DNA from: an uncultured Clostridia bacterium
GTDB taxonomy: Bacteria > Bacillota > Clostridia > TANB77 > CAG-508
Length of the DNA: 64,000 nt
Assembly (NCBI GenBank): GCA_904387305.1
Contig: CAJFLB010000001.1
Coordinates: 39,564 to 103,563 of the forward strand
Direction of reading: 5' to 3'
In this document: one piece after another, positions 2 to 23,526 of the stretch
Layout of the letters: each line of letters begins with the position of its first letter
Position numbering within the stretch: the first letter of the stretch is position 1
The notes under the pieces: generated by a model
The model's database searches: none
Seen by the model: the letters and a program-made list of their open reading frames with translations, nothing else
Told to the model about the DNA's origin: nothing
Made by a program: the position numbers and the translations under genes

Positions 2-2401
2 GTAAACCTAATCTTTGCTAAAGAAGAGGGAGATTTAACAGACAGAAATAATGAAGATATCTGGGGAGATGTCAATGGTATGGCATTCTTTGGAATGTAT
101 AGACTAAACAGAACCACAGGTAATAAAGAATATGATATTTATGCACCAGATTATGCTGGAGGAGCTACAACGAATATGTTTGCAACAGGTACTTACGTAG
201 AGGGAAGACATAAATCAAATCATGATATTACAGTTGATGGATTCTATACAAATGTTGTAAGCGAAGGTTCAACTACAGCTGTACCACAAGTAATAGAAGT
301 AACAGACTATGGAACCTATTATGATTGGATTATAGGAGCCCAAATTGTAAACTATAATACACAAGTTATTGCATCTATATTTGGAACAGAATCAACAGCA
401 GAATTAACATTAGACTTCAATTCATTTGTTGATAACACAACATATAGTGGTACAACATTTAGTATTGATAGAGTTAGTACAAATGCATTAAACACAGATG
501 TTAACTTAATTAATAAATTACAAATACCAATTTATAGTGAAAATGCAAATAACACATTTGGATTCACAATGCAAACATCAGATTCTGGATGGCAGCAATC
601 AGGTGAAACAAATATCTATACAGATGGAGATGGTTCATTTGATGGAGATACCGTATTTAAGACAGACAATTCAGATACACCAGGAAACTTACTATTTAAG
701 ATATTTAGTTCAATAAATATCTCTGAAACAAAAGACTTAGGAAATGTCAATATTGTCTTAACTGGAAAAGTAAAATCAAGTGAAGATGCAAATATGGGTA
801 ATACATTTAAAGTGGTTATTGCAGTAAATCTTCAAACAGAAAAAACTCCAAATATAGAAAATTATATACCAACATTTACAAATAGTAGTAAGACAAAATT
901 GAATTACACAACAGATAGCCAAGTAGATATTACTTATGTGCTATACAAAGAAGTAAATGGTGTACAAACAGACTTCTATGCAGATGGAGATTATAGAGTA
1001 TTATCAACTACAATGCCTTTACCACAAGGTACAGGAATTACCATAAGAGATTATGGACAAGGAGATACAGTTAATAAAGTATATTATTACAGAGTAGCAA
1101 GTGACACAGATTATGATGCAACAGATGATAGTTCTGGAACAACAAGATACTTATATAAGCTTTCTGACTTTGTAGAAATGGGTGGAACAGATACAACTGA
1201 CAAATATGCAGATGATAATAGCCTATATTATCATGAGATTAGTCAAGGTTTAGGATATGCATTGGAAAAATATGATGTTTCAATAGATTTCAAAGATTCT
1301 AACATTAGTGCAGATCAGCTAGCACAAGAAACATATTTAGAATTAAGAGATTCAGAAGGAGCTGTTAAATATGATAATGGAGACACACAAATCGTTTATG
1401 ACTTATATAACAAAAATGCAATTATGACAGAAAACGTTACAACAAATGATGGTAAGACATCATACTCTGTATATGAGAACTTGAGAATACCATTCACATT
1501 TGATGCAAGCATTGTAGAACAAATAGCAGAAGATGGACAAACAATCCAAGATACAAAATATTATGATAAATATACAGGTATGGCAATTGAAATTGTAGAT
1601 GAACATGGAGAAAGAATAAAAGCACCAGATGTACAAAACTTAAGCATAGTAGATGAAACAACATCAACAGTTTATAGAGTAGGAATAGATGGAGTTATCA
1701 GAATTCCACTTTCAGATGGATTATCTACAATACATAATCAATATCAATTGGTATTAAGTCAAAATAGTGTACCAGCAGGTCAATATATTGCAAAAATTTA
1801 CTTCTTTGCATCAGATGACGGATCATATTATGGAGAAGAAGTAAAACAAGAACAAGAAATTTATATAACATTTATTAATAAATTATTAGGACTAGCAGGG
1901 GTAGAATCAAATGATGGAACTAGAATTGTTAATAAAAACACAGGAAAGAATCTTGATGGCAGTGATGGAATAGACTTGACAGTAAAAGTTGGTTCACCTA
2001 CAAACGAGACAAACATTAGAGTAGAATTATATAAACGAAACGAAACATATACAACAGTAGAAGATGAGGAAACAGGTACAAATACTTACACTTATAATGG
2101 AATTAGTTATACGCAAGTTGACTTAAAAGACTATTTGGAAAATCTAGATGGTACAGAATGGAAGACACCAGAAGACTTTGATGGTCAAGGTATGGTAACA
2201 GCAGAAGGATCTAAAGAATATGTAATAATGGAAAAGAAAGAACATGAAATACCAGAAGAAGGAGAAAACATTGAATTAATAGACTTTGAAACAGCAATAA
2301 AAGAAGGCATCAGTACAGGTGAGTATAAGCTAGTATTTAAAGCATATTATCATAATACACTAATACAAACTATCAGAAAATCATTTATCGTAACACCTTA
2401 G
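2..2401 (+). CDS. C-terminal part of a large acidic, Thr/Asp/Asn-rich extracellular-type protein (putative adhesin/fibre tip); 5' end lies outside the window
   Basis: Frame is open from position 2 through the ORF-track start at 80; composition suggests beta-rich secreted domains; heads the SipW cluster. Function is inferred. Confidence 0.6.
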   Translation, partial: VNLIFAKEEGDLTDRNNEDIWGDVNGMAFFGMYRLNRTTGNKEYDIYAPDYAGGATTNMFATGTYVEGRHKSNHDITVDGFYTNVVSEGSTTAVPQVIEVTDYGTYYDWIIGAQIVNYNTQVIASIFGTESTAELTLDFNSFVDNTTYSGTTFSIDRVSTNALNTDVNLINKLQIPIYSENANNTFGFTMQTSDSGWQQSGETNIYTDGDGSFDGDTVFKTDNSDTPGNLLFKIFSSINISETKDLGNVNIVLTGKVKSSEDANMGNTFKVVIAVNLQTEKTPNIENYIPTFTNSSKTKLNYTTDSQVDITYVLYKEVNGVQTDFYADGDYRVLSTTMPLPQGTGITIRDYGQGDTVNKVYYYRVASDTDYDATDDSSGTTRYLYKLSDFVEMGGTDTTDKYADDNSLYYHEISQGLGYALEKYDVSIDFKDSNISADQLAQETYLELRDSEGAVKYDNGDTQIVYDLYNKNAIMTENVTTNDGKTSYSVYENLRIPFTFDASIVEQIAEDGQTIQDTKYYDKYTGMAIEIVDEHGERIKAPDVQNLSIVDETTSTVYRVGIDGVIRIPLSDGLSTIHNQYQLVLSQNSVPAGQYIAKIYFFASDDGSYYGEEVKQEQEIYITFINKLLGLAGVESNDGTRIVNKNTGKNLDGSDGIDLTVKVGSPTNETNIRVELYKRNETYTTVEDEETGTNTYTYNGISYTQVDLKDYLENLDGTEWKTPEDFDGQGMVTAEGSKEYVIMEKKEHEIPEEGENIELIDFETAIKEGISTGEYKLVFKAYYHNTLIQTIRKSFIVTP

Positions 2402-2513
2402 GGGACATTGGGACCATTGGGACCAGATCCGTTTGGTCCCAAATGTGTCCGATTGGGGACGTTTCTGTTTGGGACATTTTGTCCCAATTGGGAACGTTTC
2501 CATTTGGACATTT
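2401..2513. repeat. REP cluster (family A TTGGGACCAGRTCCGTTTGGTCCC plus family B TTGGGGACGTTTCTGTTTGGGACATTT)
   Basis: GC-rich palindromic units starting at the TAG of the upstream gene; both units recur throughout the window. Confidence 0.85.
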
Positions 2514-2526
2514 TGAACATAGATAC

Positions 2527-2756
2527 TGTTTAAATCAATATTTAGAAAATTGGGCTGAGGGTTAGTATTTTTTTCATTATTTCCTCGGCTAGCTATATAG
2601 ACTACAAATTCTATTATTTGAATACATGAGCCTCTCGCTGTTCGCGCTTCCTCATGTATTCAAATCCAAGAATTTGTACGTCAATTCCGCGTCGCATTCG
2701 TCAATGAATTCAAAAATACTAAGCCTCAGCCCAATTAAAAATATTGAAAATAAACA
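2527..2756 (+). repeat. Long structured hairpin element, family D copy 1
   Basis: Nested inverted repeats (AATTGGGCTGAGG..CCTCAGCCCAATT; ATTTGAATACATGAG..CTCATGTATTCAAAT); motifs TTCCTC, GAGCCTCTCGCT, CGCTTCCTCA and CATTCGTCA shared with 17717 and 45290. Confidence 0.8.
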
Positions 2757-2793: not shown

Positions 2794-3670
2794 ATGGAAA
2801 GAAAACATGCAAGAATAAGAAAAGAAAAAAGAATAAAAAGAATAATGCTACTGTTTATTATAATCGTAATAGTTATCACATGTTCTGTATTTGGTAGATA
2901 TATATATTATCAAGCAAGAGAAGCTTATTTTACTTCAAAAGCATTTTATTTTACAAGTGACTTATTGACTCTTGATAATGCAACTTACCAATATGAAAAT
3001 TGGGGTGGTGTAGATAACTATGAAATCAACTTTGATTTGTACAGTTATCAAAATACATTATTGAGATTAGATTATGATTTAGAGTATACACTTTCGTGTG
3101 AAACGCCAGATTCAGATAAAGTAACTTTACGGTATTAATGAAGAAGGCGGACCAACAGAAACTACAGGCATCATATATGCAAAAGAGGGAGATACTCCAA
3201 ATAATGTTAGTAGAATAAAAATTGTGGTAACACCAAAAACACAAATAGAACAAGATGATATTATTACAATTAAAATAAAAGCAAGTACACAAGAACCATA
3301 TCAAAAAGAAATTTCTTGTGAGATTTCATTAAGAATACAAAGAGTTTTAGCAAATAGCTATGAAATAGAGGATGTTGCAAATAGAAATTATTTCATATTA
3401 AAAATGATAAATACACATGATACAGCAGGAAATGTTTCATTACAGTTTGATCCAAATGTGGTAAGAATAGATTTAAATGATGAGGCTTATATAAATAGAG
3501 TAGAAAACACAGAAGAAGTAAATAGTGATGGATATGTGGAAAAGTTTACTTTTACAATGGATAAAGAATCTGCTCAAAATATTAAATTTTATAAAGTAGA
3601 TATGTCTCAAGATTACACTTATCCTTCAAGTGATGAAGAATGTATTATCTCAGTAAATGCTGAAGAATGA
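2794..3670 (+). CDS. SipW-class signal peptide protein (fibre subunit-like), about 291 aa if read through a +1 frameshift at CGG 3130-3132
   Basis: Basic then hydrophobic N-terminus ending SVFGRY; frame 1 stops 2 codons after CGG; the +1 frame from GGT at 3131 is open and continuous with ORF 3224..3670. Confidence 0.7.
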
Positions 3671-4970: not shown

Positions 4971-5411
4971 ATGAGAAAAACACGAAAAGGTAAAAAAATA
5001 ATAGGAATGATATTAATAGCCATTATAGTGCTTATAATTGTGGTGGTTGCAATTGTTATGATTGTTAGAAATGCAAATAAAGATTCTGACACAACAGAAC
5101 AACCACAACAAACTGCTATTCCATTACCAGATACTACGTATAACAGTATGGAAGTAACAGATGTATCTATGGAATATTTAGATGACCAAGATCAAACAAT
5201 GGTATCTATGTCTATATTAAATACGACACAAAATGCGGTAGAAAACGAAAGTTTAAATGCCATTTTAGTTGGTGCTGATGGAGAGGTATTAGGACAAATG
5301 CAAACATGGATTCAAAGTTTAGGTGTTGGTGAACAATATGATATTAGTGTCATATTAAATGGTAATTTAACAGGTACACAATCAATACAATTACAACCAG
5401 TAAACGATTAA
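4971..5411 (+). CDS. Membrane-anchored protein with small Ig-like (FxLYD-like) domain
   Basis: RBS GGAGG; N-terminal TM helix; pattern AILVGADGEVLG...SLGVGEQY resembles FxLYD domains. Confidence 0.55.
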   Translation: MRKTRKGKKIIGMILIAIIVLIIVVVAIVMIVRNANKDSDTTEQPQQTAIPLPDTTYNSMEVTDVSMEYLDDQDQTMVSMSILNTTQNAVENESLNAILVGADGEVLGQMQTWIQSLGVGEQYDISVILNGNLTGTQSIQLQPVND

Positions 5412-5473: not shown

Positions 5474-6322
5474 ATGAAAAAAGTACTAGGAACTATATTA
5501 TTTGTAGTATATGCTATTATTGCAATTACAGTAACCGTTTTATTATTATCATATAATGATTATAATAATAGTCAAATAGGTGGATATACAATTTATATAG
5601 TCGCAGATGATTCATTAGAGCCAACATATAAACAAGGTTCTATACTATTAATTAAAGAAACAAATGACAGAAATGTACAAGTTGGAGACGAAATATTCAT
5701 GTATAAAGTATTAAATAGTTCAGAATATGAAGTTATCAGTACAACTTTACAAGGAAAAACACAACAAGGATCACATACAGTATATATTGTAGATAATGAA
5801 GAACGTTATGCAAGTGAATACTTTATTGGAAAAGTAGAAGATACAATTGTTATAGAAGGCTGGGGATACATATTAGGTCTATTAGAATCTAGATGGGGAT
5901 ATTTATTCTGTATCGTAGTAGTATCATTATTACTATTCCTACAAGAAGCATTTGAATTAGTTATGGAAATTAAATATCTTAACAAACTAAAGAAAAAACA
6001 GGCAATAGAAGTTGAGACTGAAGATGATGAAGAATATGAATATGAAGATGACGATGAGGATGAAGAGGAAGAAGAAGAGGAAAGAGTTGTAAAAGCAAAA
6101 CCTGCTAGAACGACAAAAAAAACGAGCACAAAAACTGCTACAAAGCCAAGTGCAAGTTCAAAAACTAGTTCAACCAAAAAAGCAGGTACAACAAGAAAAA
6201 CAGGTTCAACAACAAAAAGTGCGGCAACAAGAACAAGTACAACAAAAGCAGGTACAACAAGGAAGACAGCAACAGCGACAAGTAAAATAAGAGCCACAAA
6301 ATCATCAAAAGAGGAAAAATAA
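5474..6322 (+). CDS. Degenerate SipW-like (S26) signal peptidase with acidic tract and Lys/Thr/Ser-rich tail
   Basis: TM, then YIVADDSLEP and VQVGDEI boxes, then TM; the catalytic His box (THRI) is not recognisable. Confidence 0.7.
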   Translation: MKKVLGTILFVVYAIIAITVTVLLLSYNDYNNSQIGGYTIYIVADDSLEPTYKQGSILLIKETNDRNVQVGDEIFMYKVLNSSEYEVISTTLQGKTQQGSHTVYIVDNEERYASEYFIGKVEDTIVIEGWGYILGLLESRWGYLFCIVVVSLLLFLQEAFELVMEIKYLNKLKKKQAIEVETEDDEEYEYEDDDEDEEEEEEERVVKAKPARTTKKTSTKTATKPSASSKTSSTKKAGTTRKTGSTTKSAATRTSTTKAGTTRKTATATSKIRATKSSKEEK

Positions 6323-6964
6323 ATGAAAAAATTATTAAGAATTTTAGTATTAATAATGTTAATTATAACCTTATTCCAAATAGCTAACATGTATGCTTTA
6401 TATAAAGATCAACTAGAGGGAGATTATGAAAGTTTATTAGGTGTATGGTCCATTAAAGTAAATGAAACAGACATATCTTCAGGGGATGAAAATTTGACTT
6501 TTAACATGACAGAAGACAATCTTACATATGTGGATTCTGAACATGTTAAAAGCCAAAAAATGGCTCCAGGGACACAAGCATATTTTGAGATTATTATAGA
6601 TCCGACAAATACAGATGTATCAATTTTATATACATTAAATATAAAATTAGATGAAGTAACAGAAGCAAAATTAAAATTAGTGAATGTAGAAAATTATTTT
6701 CAAAAGCCTGGAGAAACAGAGCAAGTTACAAATGAAGATGTATATACAACAAATGAAACCAATGAGCATGAGGCTATTATTCCTATTGCAACAATAAATG
6801 ACAAATATTTAAATCATATTCGATTATATTTTGAATGGGAAAATGTAGAAGAAAATAATGAAGCTGATTCAGAATTGGGACAAACAGAAAATGCAAAGAT
6901 AAACATTCCATTAGAAATTAATTTAAAACAATATACGGGAGAAGTGATAGGCAATGAACCATAA
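6323..6964 (+). CDS. TasA/CalY-like SipW-class secreted subunit
   Basis: Signal ending NMYALY; WSIKVN, MAPGTQAYFEIIID and FEW...DSELG motifs shared with paralogs. Confidence 0.7.
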   Translation: MKKLLRILVLIMLIITLFQIANMYALYKDQLEGDYESLLGVWSIKVNETDISSGDENLTFNMTEDNLTYVDSEHVKSQKMAPGTQAYFEIIIDPTNTDVSILYTLNIKLDEVTEAKLKLVNVENYFQKPGETEQVTNEDVYTTNETNEHEAIIPIATINDKYLNHIRLYFEWENVEENNEADSELGQTENAKINIPLEINLKQYTGEVIGNEP

Positions 6965-7478
6965 AGAAATATTAAAAATTATTAAAAAAGTGATTGTAGA
7001 CCTAATAATTTTTGTATTGAGTATCATTGCTATTCTTGTCATATGGGGATTTATACAATTAAACATACAAAATAAAGAATATGTAAATATATTTGGATAT
7101 TCTATACTTAGTACAGAAACTGGAAGTATGTCACCAACAATAGAAGTAGGTGATATTATAATCATTAAAATAGGTGATGAAATAAAGGAAAATGATATTA
7201 TAACATACCAACAGGATAATGTACTAATTACACATAGAATAGAAAAAATAGAGGGAGATACTATCATTACAAAAGGAGACTATAACAACATTCAAGATGA
7301 GCCAATAAAAAAAGATCAAGTGATAGGTAAAGCAGTGTGTATTATCAATAATGTGCAAGTTTGGAAACAAGTATTTACAGATATGCATGTTATTATACCA
7401 ATGATTATAACGATAATATTATTTATAGTGATGATTTCATATAAAGAAAAAATAGGTGAGAAAAAAGATGTTGGATAA
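6954..7478 (+). CDS. sipW: Signal peptidase I, SipW/ER-type (S26B)
   Basis: TGSMSP (Ser), GDIII, ITHRI (His), TKGDYN; flanking TM helices. Confidence 0.9.
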   Translation: MNHKEILKIIKKVIVDLIIFVLSIIAILVIWGFIQLNIQNKEYVNIFGYSILSTETGSMSPTIEVGDIIIIKIGDEIKENDIITYQQDNVLITHRIEKIEGDTIITKGDYNNIQDEPIKKDQVIGKAVCIINNVQVWKQVFTDMHVIIPMIITIILFIVMISYKEKIGEKKDVG

Positions 7479-8040
7479 GAAGAAATTGAAAAAAAGTATC
7501 ATCATACTTTTTTTAATAGCAATTATCATAATCGCTATTATTTTTATAAGAAATACATTATCAAGATATGAAACAGTAGCAACATCAGAAAAAGATGTGG
7601 ATGTTGCTTTCTGGATGTTTCATGATGATTTTCAATCAGCAAGTATGATTATAAAAGATATATATCCATCAAATAATTCATTTGATTATTCTTTTTCAGT
7701 ATCAAATTTTGAAGCAGATGAAGATGGAACAATAACCAAAAGAGCAGAAACAGATTTAGAGTATAATTTAAAAATAACAACAACAACCAATTTACCATTA
7801 GAATATGCAATAGAAAAGAACGGAGAAATTTTAACGACACAGCAAAATATATTTACTGATGAGGATGGTACATATTATAGAGAAATCATAATAGAGCCAT
7901 CACAAATGGTAGAAGGAGAAGATTTGACAGATAATTATGTTATTAAAGTAACATTTCCAAAAGAGAATGATACAAATGCAGAATATTCTGATTTGATAGA
8001 ATATATAAAATTAGATATAAATGCAGAACAAATCATATAG
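7468..8040 (+). CDS. TasA/CalY-like SipW-class secreted subunit
   Basis: Signal ending NTLSRY; VAFW and IYP motifs; ATG at 7468 preferred over the ORF-track start at 7456. Confidence 0.7.
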   Translation: MLDKKKLKKSIIILFLIAIIIIAIIFIRNTLSRYETVATSEKDVDVAFWMFHDDFQSASMIIKDIYPSNNSFDYSFSVSNFEADEDGTITKRAETDLEYNLKITTTTNLPLEYAIEKNGEILTTQQNIFTDEDGTYYREIIIEPSQMVEGEDLTDNYVIKVTFPKENDTNAEYSDLIEYIKLDINAEQII

Positions 8041-8096: not shown

Positions 8097-9143
8097 ATGA
8101 ATAACTTAATGGATACATATATAACATATACAGAAAAGAAAATAAAAAAATATATAAAAACAATATTAGACAAACAATATGACGAAAATCTAGTAAGTGA
8201 ATATTTAAAAACATATATTAATGCCAGATATTATAATATTCAAAATACAGACACACCTGCTAGAGCTTTTTACTTAAGAATATTAGAAGAATTAGAATAT
8301 AAAGAAGATATTTTAATGAAAAGATGCGAAGAAGAATCTCAAAACTTAAATGAAAAGCAAGAACAATTAAATAAAATTCACAATTTGAAGGAATTGTTTG
8401 CATATATTTTATTTTTTGATAATGTTAGAAATGTAGAAAATTTTAAGTCGATTGATAATATAAAAGAAATTATCAGTAAAATGATACAAACGGCAAATTC
8501 ATTATTTAAAATAGAAGTTTCACAAAGTGTAGAAAAAAAATTATATGAAGAAATCAAAAAAGATATGATTGAAAAAGAAGTATTTTTAGACAAATTTGAT
8601 ACAGATGAATTTGCTTTACAATTTGAAAATAGTAAAGTCAAGGATGATGTATATTTTGTTACTTTAGAACAAAAAGTGAAAATGCCTATGCAGTATAGTG
8701 AGGCGGCGATAGAGAAAGTATATAATGAAGGAATTGTTGCAGAAGATAAATTGCAAGTAGAATATATATTATTAAGTGTTGTTGTCATTTCAGATATTAT
8801 CAATGGGAATTTTGATGATAAATATATTGCAGAATTTGCAAGTACACTATTTAAAAAGAAACAAAAATTAGATAGTATATTGTCAATTCTAGGAAATCAA
8901 GAATTGCAAGATAAAATACATTTGAATATTATGTATTCTGATTATATAAAAAATCAAAAAAGTATTTTAGCATATACAAAAAAAGGTTACAATTTTACGA
9001 TTACATTAGATAACACAGTAAAAAGTATAGAAGATGTAGAAAAATTAAAAATGTTTAAAATGGTTATTGTACCACAAAAATTATCATTATATAAAGAAAT
9101 AAAAAGCAATAAAGAAATTCTTAATAATGTAATACTAAAATAA
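8097..9143 (+). CDS. Cytoplasmic hypothetical protein; C-terminal half resembles a degenerate EAL-like barrel
   Basis: RBS GGAGG; no signal peptide; KIHLNI...KKGYNFTITLD resembles the EAL LEI...GF.IAIDD region but lacks catalytic residues. Confidence 0.5.
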   Translation: MNNLMDTYITYTEKKIKKYIKTILDKQYDENLVSEYLKTYINARYYNIQNTDTPARAFYLRILEELEYKEDILMKRCEEESQNLNEKQEQLNKIHNLKELFAYILFFDNVRNVENFKSIDNIKEIISKMIQTANSLFKIEVSQSVEKKLYEEIKKDMIEKEVFLDKFDTDEFALQFENSKVKDDVYFVTLEQKVKMPMQYSEAAIEKVYNEGIVAEDKLQVEYILLSVVVISDIINGNFDDKYIAEFASTLFKKKQKLDSILSILGNQELQDKIHLNIMYSDYIKNQKSILAYTKKGYNFTITLDNTVKSIEDVEKLKMFKMVIVPQKLSLYKEIKSNKEILNNVILK

Positions 9144-9163: not shown

Positions 9164-10717
9164 ATGGAAACATATGGAAGATTTTTATTCGAATTTTTAA
9201 GCCAATTTTTCTCTGGATTTCAAGAGATTTTTGGTGGACTTTGGAATGGGATTGTAAATATATTTAATATACCAGGATATTGGAGTATTATCCAAAATTA
9301 TGCTAATGATTTTAAAGTTTCAGAATGGCTTTTAACAGGTTTAGCGATTATTTGTATGTTGATTGTAATAGGAGGTATTATTGGAATCATAATCTTTTTC
9401 TTGAAAAGACATATGAAATGGAGAAAAAAGATTATTAATCAAGAAGAATTATTAAAACAAATCGATACCTTAAATGGACAAGTAGAAGAATTAGTAGATG
9501 AAAAACTAAAATTGCTAAATATGAAGTCACCAGAATTAGGTGTAAATCCAAATGGTATCAGTACAGGTATGGATAAAGCTGCACTTGCTGCTGCACAATC
9601 AGAAGCAAATAATGAAGAACAAATAGATCCAAATAGTCAAAGTAGATTCTCTAAATTAACAATGCTAGACGAAGAATTTGCAAAATATAAACAAAAAGAT
9701 TATCACAATAATTTTACATTACCAGAATTTTGTTATATGTTTAGAAATTTTGCCGCAAGTAAGTTAAAACTATATTATAGTGAAAAGATGATAAGATTAT
9801 TCGTATCAGCAATTGCATCAACAAAACTTGTTATTTTACAAGGTATTTCTGGTACAGGTAAAACATCTATATCTCTTGCATGGGGTAACTTTGTAAAACA
9901 CCCATCATGTGTTGCATCTGTACAACCTTCTTGGAGAGATAGAACAGATATTTTTGGGTACTTAAATGAGTTCACCAAAAAATTTAATGAAACAGACTTT
10001 TTAGCATATTTATATGAAGCAGGATATACAGATGAAATTTACACAGTTATCCTAGATGAGATGAACTTAGCGCGTGTGGAATACTATTTTGCAGAAATGT
10101 TATCAATTCTAGAAATGCATAGTACAAAAGATTGGAAAATTGAGATTGTACAAAGTTCATGGCCAACTGATCCAAAGAAATTGATAAAAGGAAAATTGCA
10201 AATTCCACCAAATGCATGGTATATAGGAACAATCAACAATGACGACTCAACATTCATGGTAACAGATAAGGTATATGATAGAGCAATGCCAATAGATATT
10301 AATGAAAAAGGTATTGCATTTGAACCAGATGATGTAGATGCTCTTGACGTTAACTATTCATACTTAAATGGTTTATTTGATAAAGCAATTGTAGATTATG
10401 CTATATCACCATCAACTTTAAAAAAGATAGAAGACATGGATAATTATACAATCAAACACTTTAGAGTTGCATTTGGTAACCGTATCGTAAAACATATGAA
10501 AAAATTTGTACCAGTATACGTAGCTTGTGGAGGAGATGAAACAGAAGCGGTAGACTATTTCATGGCTAAAAAAGTATTAAGAAAATTTGAAGGATTAAAC
10601 CTAACTTTAATTAGAGATGAAATTGATGGTTATATTGAGTTTTTGGACAAAAACTTTGGAAAAGGCAAAATGAGCGAATGTATAGAATTCTTATTAAGAC
10701 TTAAAAAGATGTCTTAG
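9164..10717 (+). CDS. McrB-like AAA+ NTPase with N-terminal membrane segment and coiled coil
   Basis: Walker A GISGTGKT, VQPSW, Walker B ILDEMNLARVEYYFA, McrB-type GTINNDDST, KVYDRA; hydrophobic helix near aa 55-80 followed by heptads. Confidence 0.85.
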   Translation: METYGRFLFEFLSQFFSGFQEIFGGLWNGIVNIFNIPGYWSIIQNYANDFKVSEWLLTGLAIICMLIVIGGIIGIIIFFLKRHMKWRKKIINQEELLKQIDTLNGQVEELVDEKLKLLNMKSPELGVNPNGISTGMDKAALAAAQSEANNEEQIDPNSQSRFSKLTMLDEEFAKYKQKDYHNNFTLPEFCYMFRNFAASKLKLYYSEKMIRLFVSAIASTKLVILQGISGTGKTSISLAWGNFVKHPSCVASVQPSWRDRTDIFGYLNEFTKKFNETDFLAYLYEAGYTDEIYTVILDEMNLARVEYYFAEMLSILEMHSTKDWKIEIVQSSWPTDPKKLIKGKLQIPPNAWYIGTINNDDSTFMVTDKVYDRAMPIDINEKGIAFEPDDVDALDVNYSYLNGLFDKAIVDYAISPSTLKKIEDMDNYTIKHFRVAFGNRIVKHMKKFVPVYVACGGDETEAVDYFMAKKVLRKFEGLNLTLIRDEIDGYIEFLDKNFGKGKMSECIEFLLRLKKMS

Positions 10718-10722
10718 TGGAT

Positions 10723-10947: not shown

Positions 10948-10958
10948 TGGAGGGAAAA

Positions 10959-13857: not shown

Positions 13858-15461
13858 AAGAGTTAGTAGAAAATATTGAAAAACAAATTACAACAGATAA
13901 AGAAGTCATTTCAGTACTACCAAGAAATGGGATAAAAGCAATCAAAACATTATTAAAAACGATAGCTGAGATGACAGAAAAATATGAAACTTTAAATGAA
14001 AAATTGCAAAAAGAAATAGAAACTAGATATACTGAATTGACAACCGTTGAAGAAAATAAAGAGATTCCTCAATTAGAGCAAGAAATATTAAAATATGACA
14101 TGGCTGAAAAAAATACAGATACACGTTCTTCATTCGAAAAAATGGGGCTAGATCGTGTCATATATAATGTAAATGGGTACTATAAAAGCAATTTAGAAAG
14201 ATTAAACAAAGAACTTATTTTTAGTGTAAAACAATTTGAAAAAGTAGGAATCAAGCTAACAGCTGAAGATTTTTGTATTAGTGAATATGCAAAAAAATAT
14301 ATGGAAGTACTATTAAAAGAAGCATATGAAGGAGATATTAATTCAGAAGCTGTAAAAAATGTTTTTGAAAAAGTATATTGGCAATGTTCAGAAATCGTAT
14401 CACACTTATATGTAAATATAAGATACATTTATGATAAATATGAAAATCACATAGATAGATTTTATAATGAAAAAGCACAAGAAATTTTACAAAGTCTTTC
14501 TTTAACATCAGAAGAATTAGAAGAGAAAAAAGCAGAGTTAATTAAGCAAAAAAATCAAATTGAAGAAACAGACAATAAAAATATCCTTGATAAATTTTTT
14601 ATGGGAAGTTTGAATATCAATGATTATAAAGCAGACAATTATAAGAGAATATATACAGAACTAACAGACAAAGATGTTACTAAATTATCAGAAACTGAAA
14701 AGAAAGAAATAGATGAGAATATTGATAAATTAAATACAAATTTAACAGAATATGCAAAATATTTAGAATATAAATTCTTAGTAGAAGAAGTTTTGCAAAC
14801 AAGACAAGAATTGTTAAAAAATGCTGAAGCCAATAAAGATAAAAAAGTAAAGAAAACACAATATGAGTTAATCAAAGAAGAAATTAAAAAATTACAATCA
14901 GAAATCTTTAAATTAAATTCTAAAATTGAAAAACCAAATAAAGGATTTTTCGAAAGAAAAAAAGTAGAAGAAAAGAAAGATAGTATTGCTATTTTACAAA
15001 GAAATAATTTGGTTTTAGATTTGAAAAAGACATATATGCAATTAGATGAAGAAGTAATCAAACAAAAAATACTTCAAGATTTAGATGAAACATCATCATT
15101 ATATGATGTTATCAAATTTGCAAGTAGTTACTATGGATATATGGCTAAGGTAATGATAAAAAATAATGAAGATATTACAGATAAAGAAATTGGAGAGAAA
15201 GCTGAGAAAATAAGAAAATTTGTTAATTTTTCTAATTTTACAGTGATAAATCATGTAAATATAAGTGATACAAAAGAATTATCAATTATTATAAAAGATA
15301 AATATAAATTATTAGGAATGCAAATTTCAAAAGAAAATTTTGAAGAAGATAGCATAGACGATTTAATCAGAAAAGTAAAAATTATAAACAATTATAATAA
15401 TATTCAAAAAAGTAAATTTGCTATTAAAGATTTAGAATTTATTATGAATGTAAAGAAATAG
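13854..15461 (+). CDS. Large helical/coiled-coil cytoplasmic hypothetical protein
   Basis: 535-aa ORF, RBS GGAGG, Lys/Glu-rich; no recognisable catalytic motif. Confidence 0.65.
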   Translation: MKELVENIEKQITTDKEVISVLPRNGIKAIKTLLKTIAEMTEKYETLNEKLQKEIETRYTELTTVEENKEIPQLEQEILKYDMAEKNTDTRSSFEKMGLDRVIYNVNGYYKSNLERLNKELIFSVKQFEKVGIKLTAEDFCISEYAKKYMEVLLKEAYEGDINSEAVKNVFEKVYWQCSEIVSHLYVNIRYIYDKYENHIDRFYNEKAQEILQSLSLTSEELEEKKAELIKQKNQIEETDNKNILDKFFMGSLNINDYKADNYKRIYTELTDKDVTKLSETEKKEIDENIDKLNTNLTEYAKYLEYKFLVEEVLQTRQELLKNAEANKDKKVKKTQYELIKEEIKKLQSEIFKLNSKIEKPNKGFFERKKVEEKKDSIAILQRNNLVLDLKKTYMQLDEEVIKQKILQDLDETSSLYDVIKFASSYYGYMAKVMIKNNEDITDKEIGEKAEKIRKFVNFSNFTVINHVNISDTKELSIIIKDKYKLLGMQISKENFEEDSIDDLIRKVKIINNYNNIQKSKFAIKDLEFIMNVKK

Positions 15462-15502: not shown

Positions 15503-16123
15503 ATGGAGCTGAGAACAAAATTGGAATATGATGTTGAAAAAATTTCTAACAAAATAAAACATAAAAAAAGAAAAAAAAAGATAGTAAAATTTGTGATACT
15601 CATTATTTTAATTATACTTTTTATAGTGAATATCATTTTAGCAATAGAAGAAAGAACACATATTTTTGGGATATATATGTTTAACATTATTTCTGAAAGT
15701 ATGGAACCAACATTTTATAAAGATGATTTAGCACTTGTAAAAAGTTGCAATATGGAAGAACTAAAAAAAGGAGATATTATTACATTTAAACAAGAAGATA
15801 GAATTATTTCACATAGGATATCAGAAATTATAGAAGAAAAAGGAAAGAAACAATTTATTACTAAAGGGGATAATAACGAAGTAGAAGATATAGAACCAGT
15901 AGATGTGCAGAATATATATGGGAAAGTTGTATTAGTTATTCCAAAAATAGGAAAAATAGTAAATTACATACAAAATGCAAGAGGATTTATCAATATATGT
16001 ATTTTGATAATAATTATATGTATTTTAGTTAATTTTAGGGACAATATGATAAATAATCGAAAAATTAAAAGAAAAAAATACGAAATAAAAAAATTGAGAG
16101 ATAATTATAAGATAGAGGGTTAA
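15503..16123 (+). CDS. sipW: Signal peptidase I, SipW-type
   Basis: ISESMEP, GDIITF, ISHRI, TKGDNN. Confidence 0.9.
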   Translation: MELRTKLEYDVEKISNKIKHKKRKKKIVKFVILIILIILFIVNIILAIEERTHIFGIYMFNIISESMEPTFYKDDLALVKSCNMEELKKGDIITFKQEDRIISHRISEIIEEKGKKQFITKGDNNEVEDIEPVDVQNIYGKVVLVIPKIGKIVNYIQNARGFINICILIIIICILVNFRDNMINNRKIKRKKYEIKKLRDNYKIEG

Positions 16124-16126: not shown

Positions 16127-16987
16127 ATGAGAGAGGATAATAGACAAAAAAGTAATGCAAAAAAAATAATAAAAATCATATTGATCATATTATATCAAAT
16201 TCTTGTCATAATGGCTTTAATTTTAACAGTGGTAATTGTTTTGCAAAGAGTAACCAATAGTAATAGATCAATAGGAGGATATAAAATATTTAGAGTTATT
16301 ACTGGAAGTATGGAGCCTGAATATGAAGTTGGAGAAGTGGTTATCAGTAAAGAAGTAGATCCAAAAGACATTAAAGTAGGGGATGATATTGTATATTTGG
16401 GTAAAACTGGCGAATATGCAGGAAAAATTATCATGCATAATGTTGTTGGAATAGAGACAGGCGAAAATGGAAATTTGATTTTTCATGCAAAAGGTTTACA
16501 AAGTAATAGTATTGAAGATCCTCAAATTAGTGAAGACCAAATATATGGTGTTGTAAAATATAGAGCAGGTATTTTGACAACATTGTATAATTTAGCAACA
16601 AATATATATTCCATATTTTTTATTATTATCATTTTAGTATTAAATGTATTTATATCATTTAATACACCTAAAAAACCAAAAAAACCTAAAAAACGTAAAA
16701 TAAAACAAATTGAAAATATCAGTGATGCATCAGATGAAGATTTTGAAGAAGAGGAAATAGAAGAAGATACAGAAGAATATGAATTTGAAGAAGAAAATGA
16801 TGATGTGGAAGAAGAGCATGAGTCTACTAAGAATGAAGAATATATAGAAGATGACAACAATAATGATGAAGATAGTGAAAAGATAACACATGAAGAAATC
16901 ATAAACGAAAAAATGAGGCAATATTATGAAAAGACAATAAAGAATACAAATAATAATTCACAAAAGAAAAAGGGGAAAAACAAATGA
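16127..16987 (+). CDS. sipW: Signal peptidase I, SipW-type, with acidic C-terminal tail
   Basis: ITGSMEP, VGDDIVY, IMHNV, AKG; Glu/Asp-rich tail. Confidence 0.8.
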   Translation: MREDNRQKSNAKKIIKIILIILYQILVIMALILTVVIVLQRVTNSNRSIGGYKIFRVITGSMEPEYEVGEVVISKEVDPKDIKVGDDIVYLGKTGEYAGKIIMHNVVGIETGENGNLIFHAKGLQSNSIEDPQISEDQIYGVVKYRAGILTTLYNLATNIYSIFFIIIILVLNVFISFNTPKKPKKPKKRKIKQIENISDASDEDFEEEEIEEDTEEYEFEEENDDVEEEHESTKNEEYIEDDNNNDEDSEKITHEEIINEKMRQYYEKTIKNTNNNSQKKKGKNK

Positions 16988-17002: not shown

Positions 17003-17707
17003 ATGAATATATTACGTGAATTTAGACGAGTTAAAAAGCGAAGTCTACCAGCTAGAATTTTACTGATTTCGATATTTTCTGTAATATTAATAATAAATAC
17101 CTATGCATGGTTTAATTCAAATCAGCCAGTTAATATGAGTGGACTGGAAGCCAATATAACACCTTGGGATGTTCGATATTATGTAGATGATAAAGAGGTA
17201 TTAGATGAAACTGTTACATTTACAATAGATGAATTATATCCAGGTATGCCTAATAGAGAAGATATAGTACGAATATATAATATGAGTACGACAAGTACAA
17301 GCATTAATTATGAAGTAACATCTGTAAAAGTGTTTGGACAAGAAGTATTAGATCAGCTAAAAGAAAATAATATCATGCAAACCGATGGGAATACAGTACA
17401 TATATTTGCAGATGATACAGAATATCCTTTTGATATCGGTTATACATATGATAGAGCAAGATTGGATGGCGAATATGTAGATGATGAAACAACACCAAAT
17501 GCTGGAGCAACTTTTAAATTTCAAGCAAGTTGGGAGTATCAAGGAGAGGGAACAGAAGATGAAAATCTTGCTAGAGATATTTTAGATACGAAGTTTGGAC
17601 AAGGTGCTTATGAATATTATCAAAATGAAGAAAATGATCCATCTAAGGCAATTGAAATAACAGTTAAAATAACAAGTTCTATGATTCATCCAAGTGAAGA
17701 TACATAA
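17003..17707 (+). CDS. TasA/CalY-like SipW-class secreted subunit
   Basis: Signal ending NTYAWF; PWDV, LYPGM, W...DTKFG. Confidence 0.75.
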   Translation: MNILREFRRVKKRSLPARILLISIFSVILIINTYAWFNSNQPVNMSGLEANITPWDVRYYVDDKEVLDETVTFTIDELYPGMPNREDIVRIYNMSTTSTSINYEVTSVKVFGQEVLDQLKENNIMQTDGNTVHIFADDTEYPFDIGYTYDRARLDGEYVDDETTPNAGATFKFQASWEYQGEGTEDENLARDILDTKFGQGAYEYYQNEENDPSKAIEITVKITSSMIHPSEDT

Positions 17708-18061: not shown

Positions 18062-18862
18062 ATGGCAAATGAAGAAACAACAAATGCGCAAATACAAGAA
18101 ACACCGACACTTGAAGAACAAATTGATGAGGCAACACTTGGTGAAAAACTAGAAAAGAAGGCAAAAAAGGAAAAAAGAAAAAACAAAAGACGTATCGCCT
18201 TTGAAATATTTTTAGTACTAGTTATATTACTTTTAGTTAATGTATATATCGTATTATCCATATTTTATAAAGGAGAAAATTTTACAGTAACACTAGATAG
18301 TGAATATGGAAGAGAAAGCGGATTAGTTATCTATGAGGACCCAAATAACAAATACACAAGAACATTTTTAAGATCAAAAGACATAGAATTTTTTACAGAT
18401 ATTTCAATAAATTGGTTGCCAGAAGATATAGATAATGAAGGAAATGGCTCACATAATGGTAGAAATTACATAGCATATACATTTTATGCAGAAAATATGG
18501 GACAAGACACTATAAATTATTGGACAACCATAAAAATAGATGATGTTGTAAGAAATGTAGATGAAGCAATTAGAGTTATGGTATTTAAAAATGGCGAAAG
18601 AGTAGTTTATGCAAAAAATAATAGAGAAACAGGAGAACCAGAACCTGAGACAACACCTTTTAAAGATGAAGATACTGTTATGTTAGATTTAACAGAAAAT
18701 TTCGAAGTAGGCGATATTGATAAATGGACTGTTGTTGTCTGGGTAGAGGGAGATGATCCTGAATGTTTAGACGACTTAATAGGTGGAGAAATCAAAATGC
18801 ATATGACACTTACAGAGGAACATATTTTACAAGAAGATGAAACTCCGCAAGATGAACGATAG
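18062..18862 (+). CDS. Membrane-anchored fibre-subunit paralog
   Basis: N-terminal TM; IRVMV and VVVWVEGDDPEC match LRVAF and MYVWLEGQDVDC of 18960. Confidence 0.65.
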   Translation: MANEETTNAQIQETPTLEEQIDEATLGEKLEKKAKKEKRKNKRRIAFEIFLVLVILLLVNVYIVLSIFYKGENFTVTLDSEYGRESGLVIYEDPNNKYTRTFLRSKDIEFFTDISINWLPEDIDNEGNGSHNGRNYIAYTFYAENMGQDTINYWTTIKIDDVVRNVDEAIRVMVFKNGERVVYAKNNRETGEPEPETTPFKDEDTVMLDLTENFEVGDIDKWTVVVWVEGDDPECLDDLIGGEIKMHMTLTEEHILQEDETPQDER

Positions 18863-18959: not shown

Positions 18960-20240
18960 ATGAGAGAAGAAAACATTCAAAGAAACTCAAGAAAAAGATT
19001 AAATGCATTAATTTTATTAGTAGCATTTACAGCAATCTTATTGATTGTAGCAACCTATGCGTGGTTCTCTACACAGAGAAACGTAACATTAGGTGGACTA
19101 GAAGGACAAGTAAACGTAGCTGAAGGTCTACAAATTTCATTAGATGCTTTAAACTGGGCAAACGAAATTGATTTGACAGATAATGCATCAGCATATTTTG
19201 CACAAACCAATACAAACAATGGATGGACAGATGATGATATGGTATCATTAGTAAATCCTTGGAAACAAGGTGCAGGTGGTACTTATACTTATCAAGCACG
19301 TACAAATTTAGTACCAAGTGAATTATTACCAGCTTCTACAACAGCACAAAGCACAGAAGGTATTGGATTAAATGATTTAAATATGTATAGAGGAGATGTT
19401 GAGTCAGGAAAAAAATTAACTAATGTTGCAAAATTAGCAGCTGAAGCTGATTCAGGATATTATGCAATTGACTTCTTCCTACAAAACTCTTCTTCAACAG
19501 AAGCAATTGAAGGAAGTACAAAAGACTTACTTAGAATTGAAAGTAATTCATCAATTAATTTAAATGAAACATCAAGAGAGTCAACAGGTTTACAAAATAC
19601 ATTAAGAGTAGCATTTGCTATATTTGATGAGGATTCAGATTTAGAGGATACGACATTAGTTAATAATACACCAAGTCAAGCAGATATATTACAAGCGACT
19701 ACTGGTGCTGATCGTTTAATCACAGATGTAGCTATTTGGGAACCAAATGCAAGTGGTGCACAAGTTGGAACAAGTCCAACAATTACAACATATGCAGCAC
19801 ATGTTGATTACATCGTACAAAACAACAATAAATTAACATTATCATCAACAGATAGAACAAGTTTAACATCAGGTACAAGTAGATTTGATGCAGATGATCC
19901 AGTACCTACATATGCTTTAACAGCAACATCTGTTTCAAAAGAAATAGCTGATATATATAATTGGGACACAGCAGCAGCAGCTAATGGATTAGTAAAACAA
20001 AATACAGTAAAAACACCTAATACAGGTATCATAGCAGACAATCCAATTCAATTAAAGAGTGTTAAAGATGGTACAACTGATTTTGCAATTGCACCAGGTA
20101 AATATATCCATATGAGAATGTATGTATGGCTAGAAGGACAAGACGTTGACTGTATCAACTATGCTTCACTAGGTGGAGGATTAACAATTGATGTTGGATT
20201 AAGCAAACCAGGTTCAGCAACAGATGGTGTAGGTGGCTAA
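18960..20240 (+). CDS. SipW-class secreted protein, candidate major fibre subunit
   Basis: Signal ending ATYAWF; GLQIS, YVWLEGQDVDC; followed by a terminator. Confidence 0.75.
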   Translation: MREENIQRNSRKRLNALILLVAFTAILLIVATYAWFSTQRNVTLGGLEGQVNVAEGLQISLDALNWANEIDLTDNASAYFAQTNTNNGWTDDDMVSLVNPWKQGAGGTYTYQARTNLVPSELLPASTTAQSTEGIGLNDLNMYRGDVESGKKLTNVAKLAAEADSGYYAIDFFLQNSSSTEAIEGSTKDLLRIESNSSINLNETSRESTGLQNTLRVAFAIFDEDSDLEDTTLVNNTPSQADILQATTGADRLITDVAIWEPNASGAQVGTSPTITTYAAHVDYIVQNNNKLTLSSTDRTSLTSGTSRFDADDPVPTYALTATSVSKEIADIYNWDTAAAANGLVKQNTVKTPNTGIIADNPIQLKSVKDGTTDFAIAPGKYIHMRMYVWLEGQDVDCINYASLGGGLTIDVGLSKPGSATDGVGG

Positions 20241-21727: not shown

Positions 21728-21737
21728 ATTTTATAAA

Positions 21738-21803
21738 ATGTCCCCAAAAGAAAAGTCTCTAAAGGGACAAAATGTCCCAAACAGAAACGTCCCCAAAAGG
21801 ACA
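21738..21803. repeat. Two REP family B copies, inverted relative to 20381-20402
   Basis: ATGTCCCCAAAAGAAAAGTCTC and ATGTCCCAAACAGAAACGTCCCCAA. Confidence 0.8.
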
Positions 21804-21846
21804 AAAAGGAATTATACAAATGAGAAAAGGAGGGTAAAATATACAA

Positions 21847-23526
21847 ATGAGCAATATATTGCGTAGACATAGAAAGTCGAATGAAAAGAATAAATTCAGA
21901 AAATCTTTAGCACTTATTTTTACCCTTATAATGACAACATTTGCATGGTTTGCCTATACAAAAATATTAAATCCAAGCTTAAACATACATGTGGCAGCAT
22001 GGGATATGGAATATTATATAAATGGTGAAAAAAAGGAAAATCCAATTGGAATTGAATTTCCTACATTATATCCACAGATGGAAGATCAAGTGGTAAAAGT
22101 AGATATTTTAAATAATGGAGAAGCATTAGTAGATTTAAGCTATCGAATACAAGCGATATCAATAGTTGGAGTTACATACGAATTAGTAGCAGAAGGTGAG
22201 CAACCGACAACAGAGAATTATATAATGATTGAAGATCCAATATTAGAATCAGATCCAGAAACAGGTGAGCTCTTATCAAAAGGATTTATCATTAATGATC
22301 CGGAAAAATTTCCATTCACACTGGAAATCGAACATTCTCTGCAAGTAGCAGCACAGGATGATGCATACTTAGAAGTGACTGCTAAATGGCCAGGGGATAA
22401 TGATGAATTAGATACAGAGTGGGGATATACCGTTGGAAAATATTTTATGGATAATCCAGATGCTACTTCGGCAATGGATATTACATTAAGTATTGATTCA
22501 TATCAAGCAAATGATGAAATTATAGGAGGAATAGGAAACTTACCAAATGGACCTGGTACGAGACCATATTTACCAAGTTCTGATTTTACACAAGTAGAAG
22601 GAACATCATTAGAAACAGGATTAGTTATTCAAGATTCAGCTGGAAATGAATATGTTTGGATAGAAGTACCAAAACTTGCAAGTATATATCCAACAGCTGG
22701 TATTAGTATACAAGATTTTACAGATGAAGAATATCAAAAAATTGAAAATGATTTACACACATATGCTTCAACATATAGAAATGGAACTTCTGCAAGTGAT
22801 ACATATTATTCAGAAGAGACAACAGGATTATCAAGTAGTGAATATACTGAATTAAAACAAAAAATGTTAAAGAGTGTTTATCAACATGGAGGCTTCTATG
22901 TATCAAGATATGAAGCAGGAACAAATACAAAGAGAAGTAGTAATACATCTATTGAAGACTTAGTTCCGTTGTCACAACCAAATCAATATCCAATTAATTG
23001 GATAACATGTAGTCAAGCACAAACATTGGCAAGTAAAGTAAGTACAAATGGATATTCAGGAAGTTTAATGTTTGGTATTCAATGGGATTTAGTCCAAAAA
23101 TATATCGAAACAAAGGCAGTAGCGCAAGGAACCGAAATTGGAGCAATTCAATCACAATTAATCAATAATAGTACCTCTTGGGGAAATTATCAGCCAAGTA
23201 TATATAATATTGTAAATGAAAATGCACAATATTCATTAAATAATGGTTCACAATGGTTACAAGCACCTTATGATAAAACTTCAGCAAGATCTGTATTATT
23301 ATCAACAGGAGCCAATACTGCTTTCGGAAAACAAAATATATTAGACTTAGCAGGAAATGTATGGGAATGGACTTTGGAAAATTCGAATGTAAGTTCTCAA
23401 CCATGTGTTATAAGAGGTGGATCATATGAGAGCAGTGCTTCTTCTGAGTTAACTGTAAATGCTAGAAGTAATAATACTAGCACACAAACATATTGGAGTA
23501 TTGGATTTAGAATGACAATATTCTAG
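21847..23526 (+). CDS. SipW-class subunit fused to a C-terminal FGE-sulfatase/C-type-lectin-fold domain (putative adhesin)
   Basis: Signal ending TTFAWF; AAWDM, LYP, W...DTEWG; C-terminal GGFYVSRYEAG, DLAGNVWEWT, RGGSY, IGFR. Confidence 0.75.
   Translation: MSNILRRHRKSNEKNKFRKSLALIFTLIMTTFAWFAYTKILNPSLNIHVAAWDMEYYINGEKKENPIGIEFPTLYPQMEDQVVKVDILNNGEALVDLSYRIQAISIVGVTYELVAEGEQPTTENYIMIEDPILESDPETGELLSKGFIINDPEKFPFTLEIEHSLQVAAQDDAYLEVTAKWPGDNDELDTEWGYTVGKYFMDNPDATSAMDITLSIDSYQANDEIIGGIGNLPNGPGTRPYLPSSDFTQVEGTSLETGLVIQDSAGNEYVWIEVPKLASIYPTAGISIQDFTDEEYQKIENDLHTYASTYRNGTSASDTYYSEETTGLSSSEYTELKQKMLKSVYQHGGFYVSRYEAGTNTKRSSNTSIEDLVPLSQPNQYPINWITCSQAQTLASKVSTNGYSGSLMFGIQWDLVQKYIETKAVAQGTEIGAIQSQLINNSTSWGNYQPSIYNIVNENAQYSLNNGSQWLQAPYDKTSARSVLLSTGANTAFGKQNILDLAGNVWEWTLENSNVSSQPCVIRGGSYESSASSELTVNARSNNTSTQTYWSIGFRMTIF

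Follow-up and report, generated by a model that had tools for sequence, protein, structure and literature searches.

What does a gut bacterium make with five signal peptidase genes, a series of exported proteins and an enzyme related to a DNA-restriction motor, all in one run of co-oriented genes? The question is raised by a stretch of 64,000 nucleotides, here called the window (G000:C1:39564-103563), in the genome G000 of an uncultured Clostridia bacterium, an assembly of 1.89 Mb in 67 contigs with approximately 28% G+C. Window positions 2-23526 had been predicted from the sequence alone to hold an expanded locus for surface fibres, served by SipW-type peptidases and not by a sortase, and the long open reading frames (ORFs) of this part do lie almost all on the + strand, as that prediction had it. 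The locus is a real and conserved gene cluster of an uncultured gut bacterium, and it belongs, in an expanded and rearranged form, to a class named in 2024 yet uncharacterised. Read as a whole, it is probably a locus of the CoCoPALM type that makes a surface fibre or an adhesin display without a sortase or a known chaperone.

Genes are labelled below with w and their start position in the window, and protein families with F and the same number; the peptidases fall into classes A-D. The peptidase genes, and those of the nucleoside triphosphatase (NTPase) and its partner, are as follows.

5474..6322, + strand: class A, a SipW-like pseudo-peptidase with an S26B fold signal, two transmembrane (TM) segments and no catalytic histidine.
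6954..7478, + strand: class B, a SipW-type peptidase with serine and histidine present.
9164..10717, + strand: a membrane-anchored McrB-type AAA+ NTPase, with TM residues 50-84 followed by a K/E/L-rich helical stretch.
10947..12080 (ATG at 10959), + strand: the McrC-like partner with DUF2357, the N-terminal domain of McrC (E 1.4e-8).
12081..12893, + strand: class C, a SipW-type peptidase with a 95-residue K/E-rich N-terminal cytoplasmic extension.
15503..16123, + strand: class D, a SipW-type peptidase and the best match to TIGR02228 (114.6 bits).
16127..16987, + strand: a second class C peptidase, 44% identical to w12081, with an acidic C-terminal tail.

TIGR02228 describes the archaeal/endoplasmic reticulum (ER)-type signal peptidase I (S26B) and has a curated cut-off of 51.85 bits. 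Against it, w6954, w12081, w15503 and w16127 scored 69.6, 78.4, 114.6 and 64.6 bits, respectively, and w5474 scored 37 bits; all five also match the SipW model of NCBIfam. The prediction of five SipW-type peptidases thus holds as far as the family is concerned, but w5474 stays below the cut-off and, although it keeps the catalytic serine, has no histidine. A six-frame search of the 1.89-Mb genome returned exactly five TIGR02228 matches, all at C1:45043-56220 (11.2 kb). As the only five matches of the genome all lie within ~11 kb, their clustering is not a matter of chance. A single bacterial-type LepB is encoded on another contig and, therefore, the five peptidases of the cluster are extra to housekeeping secretion.

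For comparison across species, a hidden Markov model (HMM) of each family was scanned over the best 80 loci of the guanosine triphosphatase (GTPase) gene w9164, taken with ±10 kb and in many cases cut by contig ends. In the alignment of the peptidases from these loci, serine and histidine are both kept in class B (51/51), class C (85/86) and class D (15/19). In class A, the histidine is found in 0 of 70 sequences and the serine in 10 of 70. Because of the missing histidine, class A is not counted as an active member; judged by its residues, it is a conserved, catalytically dead paralogue, which leaves four peptidases of the five that can be catalytic. At six of the 80 loci, a peptidase and the exported protein that follows it are joined in one open frame, five times with F7456 and once with F17003. 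Three peptidases bear charged, low-complexity tails (acidic and then basic and S/T/K-rich in w5474, K/E-rich in w12081, acidic in w16127); the orthologues of G003, G020, G015, G008 and G004 lack these tails or have shorter ones.

The original prediction had also allowed for a dedicated ATPase. An NTPase is indeed present, but it is specifically of the McrB type and is paired with a McrC-like DUF2357 protein. In a phmmer search, the AAA+ core of w9164 (residues 203-375) matched the solved E. coli McrB chains in the PDB with E 2.8e-5. Its Walker A (GISGTGKTS), Walker B (ILDEMN) and signature (INNDD) motifs are invariant in the five of five aligned homologues; the signature I-N-N-D-D-S can be read as NxD followed by D, the form described for CoCoPALM (see below), and also as NxxD, as when HMMER aligns it without gaps to E. 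coli McrB. Residues 1-150 gave no match to a DNA-binding family and hold a TM segment instead, and no match to the FtsB/DivIC families of Pfam at E ≤ 10. The McrC-like gene adjoins the McrB gene at all of the 80 loci, and its stop abuts the start of w12081. No nuclease family was detected in w10947, and 25 of 25 homologues carry DUF2357 only, though a very divergent PD-(D/E)xK domain could escape a sequence search. Neither single-sequence nor profile searches of the PDB sequences gave a match for the McrC-like proteins.

The name CoCoPALM comes from Bell et al. (eLife 2024, PMC11090510), who gave the class a few sentences, without experiments, and deferred its analysis to a later publication. 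The passages in question describe a clade of McrB GTPases of the NxD type in which an FtsB-like TM/coiled-coil domain is fused to the GTPase, with the McrB and McrC homologues usually both bearing coiled coils. The McrC homologue is adjacent and commonly nuclease-less, genes of the signal peptidase family are associated and called likely pilus assembly factors, and the class is found in Bacillota (PMC11090510). Literature searches for the later CoCoPALM paper found only the 2024 eLife article and its preprint. The present locus combines a McrB-family GTPase, a DUF2357 homologue of McrC and an association with signal peptidases, three features of the class, and we assign it to CoCoPALM with high confidence. 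The statement of the original prediction that the architecture was not recognisable as described has to be withdrawn in view of the match to these passages (PMC11090510).

The GTPase gene was found in at least 588 species genomes (among 600 candidate stretches), mostly gut and rumen metagenome-assembled genomes labelled Clostridia, Bacilli, Tenericutes/Mollicutes or Erysipelotrichaceae. Within the genus, 5 of 24 other genomes have it, and within the class 18 of 400 (12 of 216 genera). In the five genus relatives (G003, G020, G015, G008 and G004), the whole cluster is present and the flanking genes differ; among the cluster genes, that of the NTPase is the best conserved there (60-88% identity, as against 24-79% for the exported proteins). 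Nearly identical DNA (word share 0.87-0.96) occurs in 14 runs of seven studies (P2-P8), 13 of them labelled as chicken gut metagenomes and one as organism A; another three runs, from study P1, may be its source.

The gene order is conserved as well. The McrB, McrC-like and class C peptidase genes are adjacent at 78 of the 80 loci, with F8097 in front at 75 and F17003 behind them at 65; class A adjoins F6323 at 50 loci, and the order A-F6323-B-F7456 is seen at 45. Counted by family, the McrC-like gene is present at 80 loci, peptidase C at 79, F8097 at 77, F17003 at 73, F2794 at 72, peptidase A at 66, F18960 at 64, F12957 at 63, F18062 at 57, F6323 and peptidase B at 51 each, F7456 at 47, F13854 at 31 and peptidase D at 15. 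The original prediction had made the survival of the genes as a cluster in relatives a test of itself, and since the cluster is kept together both in the five genus relatives and at the wider set of loci, it was not refuted on this point; the locus is multi-component and independent of sortase, and several SipW-type peptidases and cytoplasmic partners are what the relatives keep as a cluster. The species group of the window is rearranged in that class C is duplicated (w12081 and w16127) and the F12957 gene has been moved and is co-oriented with the others. In most species, the latter gene lies mid-cluster on the opposite strand, with the rest co-oriented. Examples of the opposite orientation are the loci L039, L047, L053, L065, L088, L097 and L100 of other species groups, as well as G004, G008 and G015.

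The independence of sortase had been part of the prediction and was borne out. There is no sortase in the locus, and all eight sortase matches of the genome sit on other contigs. Among 24 proteins of the cluster, none has an LPXTG-like motif. The exported and membrane-anchored proteins are listed below, with the predicted cut marked by an arrow.

2794..3670, + strand: F2794, an exported protein with the signal end V-F-G↓R-Y, in two ORFs (2794-3138 and 3224-3670).
4971..5411, + strand: a small membrane protein with a single TM pass and an ectodomain that falls just short of the threshold for an FxLYD-like domain (NF038353, 22 bits; cut-off 23).
6323..6964, + strand: F6323, an exported beta-sandwich protein, M-Y-A↓L-Y.
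7456..8040 (ATG at 7468), + strand: F7456, an exported protein, T-L-S↓R-Y.
12957..13685, + strand: F12957, an exported paralogue of F6323, T-Y-A↓R-Y.
17003..17707, + strand: F17003, an exported protein, T-Y-A↓W-F.
18062..18862, + strand: an N-in single-pass membrane protein with an ectodomain of ~195 residues and a C-terminal W-x-E-G-x-D-x-x-C motif as in F18960.
18960..20240, + strand: F18960, a large exported beta-sandwich protein, T-Y-A↓W-F.
21847..23526, + strand: a two-domain exported protein, with an F17003-like N-terminal part (T-F-A↓W-F) and an FGE-sulfatase-like C-terminal part.

Six exported families (F2794, F6323, F7456, F12957, F17003 and F18960) share a motif at the end of the signal anchor, with T/S at position -3, Y/F at -2, A/S/G at -1 and F/Y at +2, that is, (T/S)-(Y/F)-(A/S/G)↓(W/K/R/L)-(F/Y). 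The seven signal ends that had been picked out beforehand were as described, and at the 80 loci of other species, where each family is represented by 47-77 sequences, the motif is kept as well. The residue at +1 is family-specific: W in F17003 (74/74) and F18960 (72/72), K/R in F12957 (63/64), F7456 (40/47) and F2794 (75/77), and L/V/I in F6323 (41/51). The motif clearly resembles the ends of true PF12389 proteins from other Bacillota, which read G-G-(A/G)-T-(F/M)-A-x-F.

The exported families are large. A joint profile of F6323 and F12957 collected 2,743 representative clusters at E ≤ 1e-3, and no Pfam family matched w6323; w18960 has 934 relatives at E ≤ 1e-5 and a paralogue at C1:4066-5205. 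Outside the cluster, the genome has an F18960-like sequence at G000:C20:17143-18780 (- strand; E 3.5e-106) and an F12957-like one at G000:C49:5928-6527 (+ strand; E 1.1e-15). The protein at 4971 is restricted to the close species group and was found at 6 of the 80 loci. The F2794 gene of the window is split by a frameshift near 3125-3135, as the intact 283-residue orthologue of G003 aligned to it in two frames by tblastn. It is also split in G020; a pseudogene, an assembly error or a slippery site are possible. Full-length orthologues of w21847 were found in 5 of 60 other genomes of the genus, three of which are known carriers of the cluster, but there they lie on other contigs. The FGE-sulfatase-like domain (window 22540-23526) has matches in 54 of these 60 genomes, up to 27 per genome, mostly joined to N-termini unlike that of w21847.

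The proteins at 6323, 12957, 17003 and 21847 had been grouped by shared motifs. The W-x-V, PG and W...D(T/S) columns are invariant inside each family, but the four proteins form two pairs, 6323-12957 (BLAST E 1.6e-13) and 17003-21847 (E 1e-9). In hhalign comparisons, which rest on shallow alignments and are suggestive only, F6323 and F12957 were linked at 99.1% and F6323 and F17003 at 19%, a weak link between the pairs. By the same method, the protein at 18062, which had been taken for a TM-anchored paralog, is TM-anchored but has only a C-terminal motif of ~40 residues in common with 18960 (46%, E 2e-4). The alignment of PF12389 was matched by F7456 at 71% (E 3.7e-5, 170 columns) and by F18960 at 81%, the latter over 49 N-terminal columns only. 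The nearest Pfam-bearing Atlas cluster of w17003 is also PF12389 (0.93, 191 shared features).

Structure models were obtained for two of the subunits. The model of w18960 (pLDDT, the predicted local distance difference test, 80.4) is a beta-sandwich with large insertions. A first wide structure search with it was swamped by matches of the signal-anchor helix; the best match of the beta-domain is the Sulfolobus thread protein Saci_0406 (7pnb_A, Z 5.2, root-mean-square deviation (rmsd) 4.3, 135 residues aligned). TasA was matched within Z 4.3-4.6 (5of1_A, Z 4.6, rmsd 4.2, 137 residues; 8aur_A, Z 4.5) and AbpA (7ueg_A) at Z 3.0. The model of mature w6323 (pLDDT 90.0) matches TTHA1873 best (Z 8.1) and then pilin and adhesin domains of Gram-positive bacteria, namely EbpB (Z 8.0), PilA of S. 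sanguinis (7.9), BcpA (7.4) and RrgB (7.1), as well as the Hyper2 tubes (Z 7.0-7.1) and cannulae (Z 6.6); TasA (8aur_A) came at Foldseek rank 29 with E 9e-3. With Foldseek, neither model had a PDB match at E ≤ 0.001, and the profile search of F6323 against the PDB sequences gave nothing meaningful. The modelled subunit folds are, thus, pilin-like beta-sandwiches with a weak similarity to TasA, and a specific relation to TasA is unproven. As all of the Z values are in the range common for beta-sandwiches, the TasA/camelysin-like folds of the original prediction are neither borne out nor refuted. In both models, the residues that follow the predicted cut are unstructured (32-45 in w18960, with pLDDT < 50; 1-20 in mature w6323, with no secondary structure and pLDDT 64-73). 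A trimer prediction for three copies of mature w6323 received a score of 0.00 and a mark of 0.42, which counts neither for nor against polymerisation.

The remaining components of the cluster are cytoplasmic or very large.

2..2401, + strand: the last 799 residues of a giant secreted protein of 6,891 residues, whose gene as a whole is G000:C1:21289-41964.
8097..9143, + strand: F8097, a cytoplasmic protein encoded directly upstream of the GTPase gene.
13720..13857, + strand: a cytoplasmic ORF of 45 residues; it has a good ribosome-binding site, and its stop codon runs into the GTG start of w13854.
13854..15461, + strand: F13854, a 535-residue K/E-rich cytoplasmic protein, with a coiled coil suggested by its composition only.

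F8097 gave no Pfam or PDB sequence match, with profile searches included. An EAL identity of w8097 (Atlas 0.88, 145 shared features) was considered and rejected as too weak, since only 1 of 25 homologues matches, at E 0.035. The 45-residue ORF is a real gene, being 67-93% identical in eight close relatives.

A large upstream protein had been part of the original prediction, and what the window holds of it is the end of an ORF that starts outside, so that the cluster extends upstream of the window. This giant is N-terminally signal-anchored and contains DUF285 repeats in three blocks as well as a module of ~140 residues that is repeated at least 18 times. In G003, G020, G015, G008 and G004, the cluster likewise includes homologous giants, of 1,657-5,044+ residues, and the class D gene comes after the giant gene in G015, G008 and G004. 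ORFs of at least 800 residues are present at 55 of the 80 loci, and at 36 of these 55 they resemble the 6,891-residue giant. A second DUF285 giant lies further upstream at G000:C1:8510-20849 (L019, L001), in two frames that overlap by 26 nt (2,984 and 1,136 residues), and a transfer RNA (tRNA) gene (L001:1602-1673) stands between the two.

From these components, a course of events may be proposed. The exported proteins would enter the membrane via Sec and stay tethered by their signal anchors until peptidases, each paralogue with its own substrates, cleave them behind the small residue of (T/S)-(Y/F)-(A/S/G). The freed, unstructured N-terminus could then pair with the beta-sandwich of the subunit next to it and yield a polymer, in the manner of TasA and BsaA. 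The dead class A protein might hold an uncut F6323-type subunit as a membrane base or starter. At the cytoplasmic face, the McrBC-type pair would be a motor that uses GTP for ordering or gating the peptidases, possibly together with F8097, the 45-residue protein and F13854, and the charged tails of w5474, w12081 and w16127 are candidate contact points for the motor. The giants would be adhesive cargo and, together with the FGE fusion w21847, adhesive or terminal parts, and the TM-anchored 18062 protein, with the C-terminal motif that it has in common with F18960, may anchor the structure. We infer the formation of a fibre from sequences, models and analogy. Put at its most specific, the proposal is a new NTP-driven fibre pathway, in which a nuclease-less, membrane-anchored McrBC pair orders the processing of several pilin classes by SipW-type peptidases, with the dead peptidase as the base and DUF285 adhesins as cargo; in this full form it is tentative.

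Several results weigh against reading the locus as a motor-driven fibre or display system. No cleavage, polymer or expression was observed, the analysis being one of sequences and models. McrC-peptidase fusions were found at 0 of the 80 loci, so that the GTPase is tied to the peptidases by gene order alone, and F13854 and class D are present at only 31 and 15 of them, many loci being cut at ±10 kb or at contig ends. The check with TasA/camelysin and signal models that had been proposed went against the original prediction: PF12389 (Peptidase_M73) matched nothing in the genome at E ≤ 10 (the control in B. subtilis was positive) and 0 of 111 members of the F6323 family. TIGR04088, the model of the SipW-cognate signal, missed all ten N-termini, the best being w18960 with 18.1 bits (E 0.0022) against a cut-off of 19. 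TasA is absent from the 50 best re-aligned chains of w6323, and all structural Z values are below or near 8, a range that, according to the notes of the tool, is common for beta-sandwiches. Moreover, the NTPase matches PDC-M26A, a candidate defence model of PADLOC, at 5e-36. Because no evidence of a polymer was obtained, a dedicated system of maturation and display remains a serious rival, even if we think it rather improbable: the peptidases would release monomeric coat, matrix or adhesin proteins, and the GTPase pair would regulate or quality-control them. The immunoglobulin-like (Ig-like) adhesin and pilin domains nearest to the fold of w6323 occur in monomeric MSCRAMM adhesins too, and giant ORFs at 55 of the 80 loci and an enzyme- or lectin-like domain on w21847 would suit such a system. 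What speaks for the fibre is that six small families with TasA-like signal ends, set in a fixed order by specific peptidases, are typical of sets of major and minor subunits, that both models have unstructured N-terminal segments and that the top matches of the w18960 beta-domain are fibre subunits.

The PADLOC match, and the fact that McrBC systems are defence genes, would also agree with an unrelated defence island of the McrBC type that happened to land in a conventional fibre locus of the SipW/TasA kind, and mobile-element genes and repetitive extragenic palindrome (REP)-like repeats do lie within the locus. This is very unlikely because the McrB, McrC-like and peptidase C genes are adjacent at 78 of 80 loci of different species, all 25 McrC-like proteins are without a nuclease domain and the TM anchor of the NTPase takes the place of the DNA-binding domain; the cluster also stays intact while its flanking genes vary between genomes. 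Descent of the NTPase from a restriction family, the same match to PADLOC and a patchy, accessory-like distribution (5/24 in the genus, 18/400 in the class) could further be explained by a role in membrane defence or envelope remodelling, where a McrBC-type sensor of nucleic acid or envelope stress triggers the peptidase-dependent shedding of surface proteins such as phage receptors. We regard this as quite unlikely, given that none of the components yielded a domain for nucleic-acid binding or a nuclease domain and that structural-looking exported proteins dominate the cluster.

Should the cluster indeed make adhesive fibres, a major means by which bacteria of animal gut microbiomes attach to surfaces would have gone unrecognised; its exported families are very large and unnamed (2,743 clusters for F6323/F12957 and 934 relatives of w18960). 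It would also mean that a DNA-restriction motor has been re-used for protein assembly, and that the first NTP-driven fibre pathway of Gram-positive bacteria independent of both sortase and chaperone is widespread in uncultured gut and rumen Bacillota. The present locus is a good entry point, being complete on one contig, with peptidase-substrate pairings and a dead paralogue as a mechanistic handle.

The surroundings of the cluster and the elements inserted in it were recorded as well. Beyond the giants, upstream, are a DUF4143 ATPase, the protein u5324 (the cluster border in relatives) and the w18960 paralogue. The downstream border is a gene for a DUF4364 protein (window 23993-24544, - strand), followed by lactate dehydrogenase-like and RNase R-like genes, which were named from reading their translations only. 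Window 3702-4854 looks like a REPtron, with an IS200-like Y1 transposase gene (3855-4640, - strand; PF01797) between inverted REP-like palindromes. Two families of palindromic repeats are represented in the window by 13 and 9 copies, almost all of them in gaps between genes, against 0 expected by chance. At window 20882-21727, between w18960 and w21847, there is a gene of the PD-(D/E)XK transposase kind (PF12784, E 3.5e-52), flanked by REP-like repeats. Rfam at gathering thresholds, applied to the window and 20 kb upstream, gave a single tRNA and no riboswitch or other RNA leader. A promoter scan of this AT-rich DNA was uninformative (154 promoter-like sites against 137 expected), and the terminators from the same scan were mostly REP-like repeats.

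How does the locus compare with known systems? The signal of TasA ends in T-(aromatic)-A before an aromatic residue, like the signals of the cluster. The tapA-sipW-tasA operon of B. subtilis (PDB 5of1, 8aur) likewise sets an ER/archaeal-type peptidase beside exported beta-sandwich proteins and has no sortase. It has, however, one peptidase and no NTPase, whereas four catalytic peptidases and a dead one accompany an NTPase here, and the subunits of the cluster differ in having no PF12389 match and a weak structural similarity. In C. perfringens, BsaA needs SipW and polymerises by donor-strand exchange through an N-terminal segment that is disordered in the monomers, as described in the sections of PMC11580942 that concern it. 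According to the same sections, sipW-bsaA-bsaB-bsaC also makes a SipW-dependent, TasA-related matrix polymer without LPXTG; it is a four-gene operon with one peptidase, its export being aided by type IV pilus proteins and not by a McrBC-type GTPase. The segments that are predicted to be unstructured after the cuts resemble TasA and BsaA before donor-strand exchange (for BsaA, the same part of PMC11580942).

We know of no NTPase in the archaeal donor-strand fibres. The threads of Saci_0406 (7pnb), AbpA (7ueg) and the cannulae of CanA (9h8b) are built of beta-sandwich subunits that are among the better structural matches, and the cluster peptidases are of the archaeal type; the scores of these matches are in the common range and come without a sequence relation. 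Sortase-dependent pili (EbpB, SpaD, BcpA, RrgB) are among the best structural matches of w6323, with Z 7.1-8.0 behind the 8.1 of TTHA1873, but the contig here has no sortase, the cluster proteins have no LPXTG and their signals are of the SipW-cognate kind. E. coli McrBC (PDB 6hz4, 6ut6, 7vsr) has the same AAA+ core, Walker A and B motifs and N..D signature, and a DUF2357 partner, the domain that activates the hexamer in McrC. The pair of the locus differs from it by a TM anchor in place of the DNA-binding N-domain, by having no detectable nuclease and by a fixed neighbourhood of secretion genes.

CoCoPALM, in the passages of PMC11090510, has the same GTPase with an N-terminal TM and helical segment, the nuclease-less McrC neighbour and the peptidase genes, and is likewise found in Bacillota. 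The homology to FtsB given there was, in contrast, not detected by Pfam here. Those passages do not mention the exported families, their shared cleavage-type motif, the dead peptidase or the peptidase-substrate fusions, nor the F8097 and F13854 partners and the giant DUF285 proteins. To the class as named, the present locus adds a dead peptidase, family-specific classes of cut sites together with the pairing of genes, fusions of peptidase and substrate, and the link to giant DUF285 proteins.

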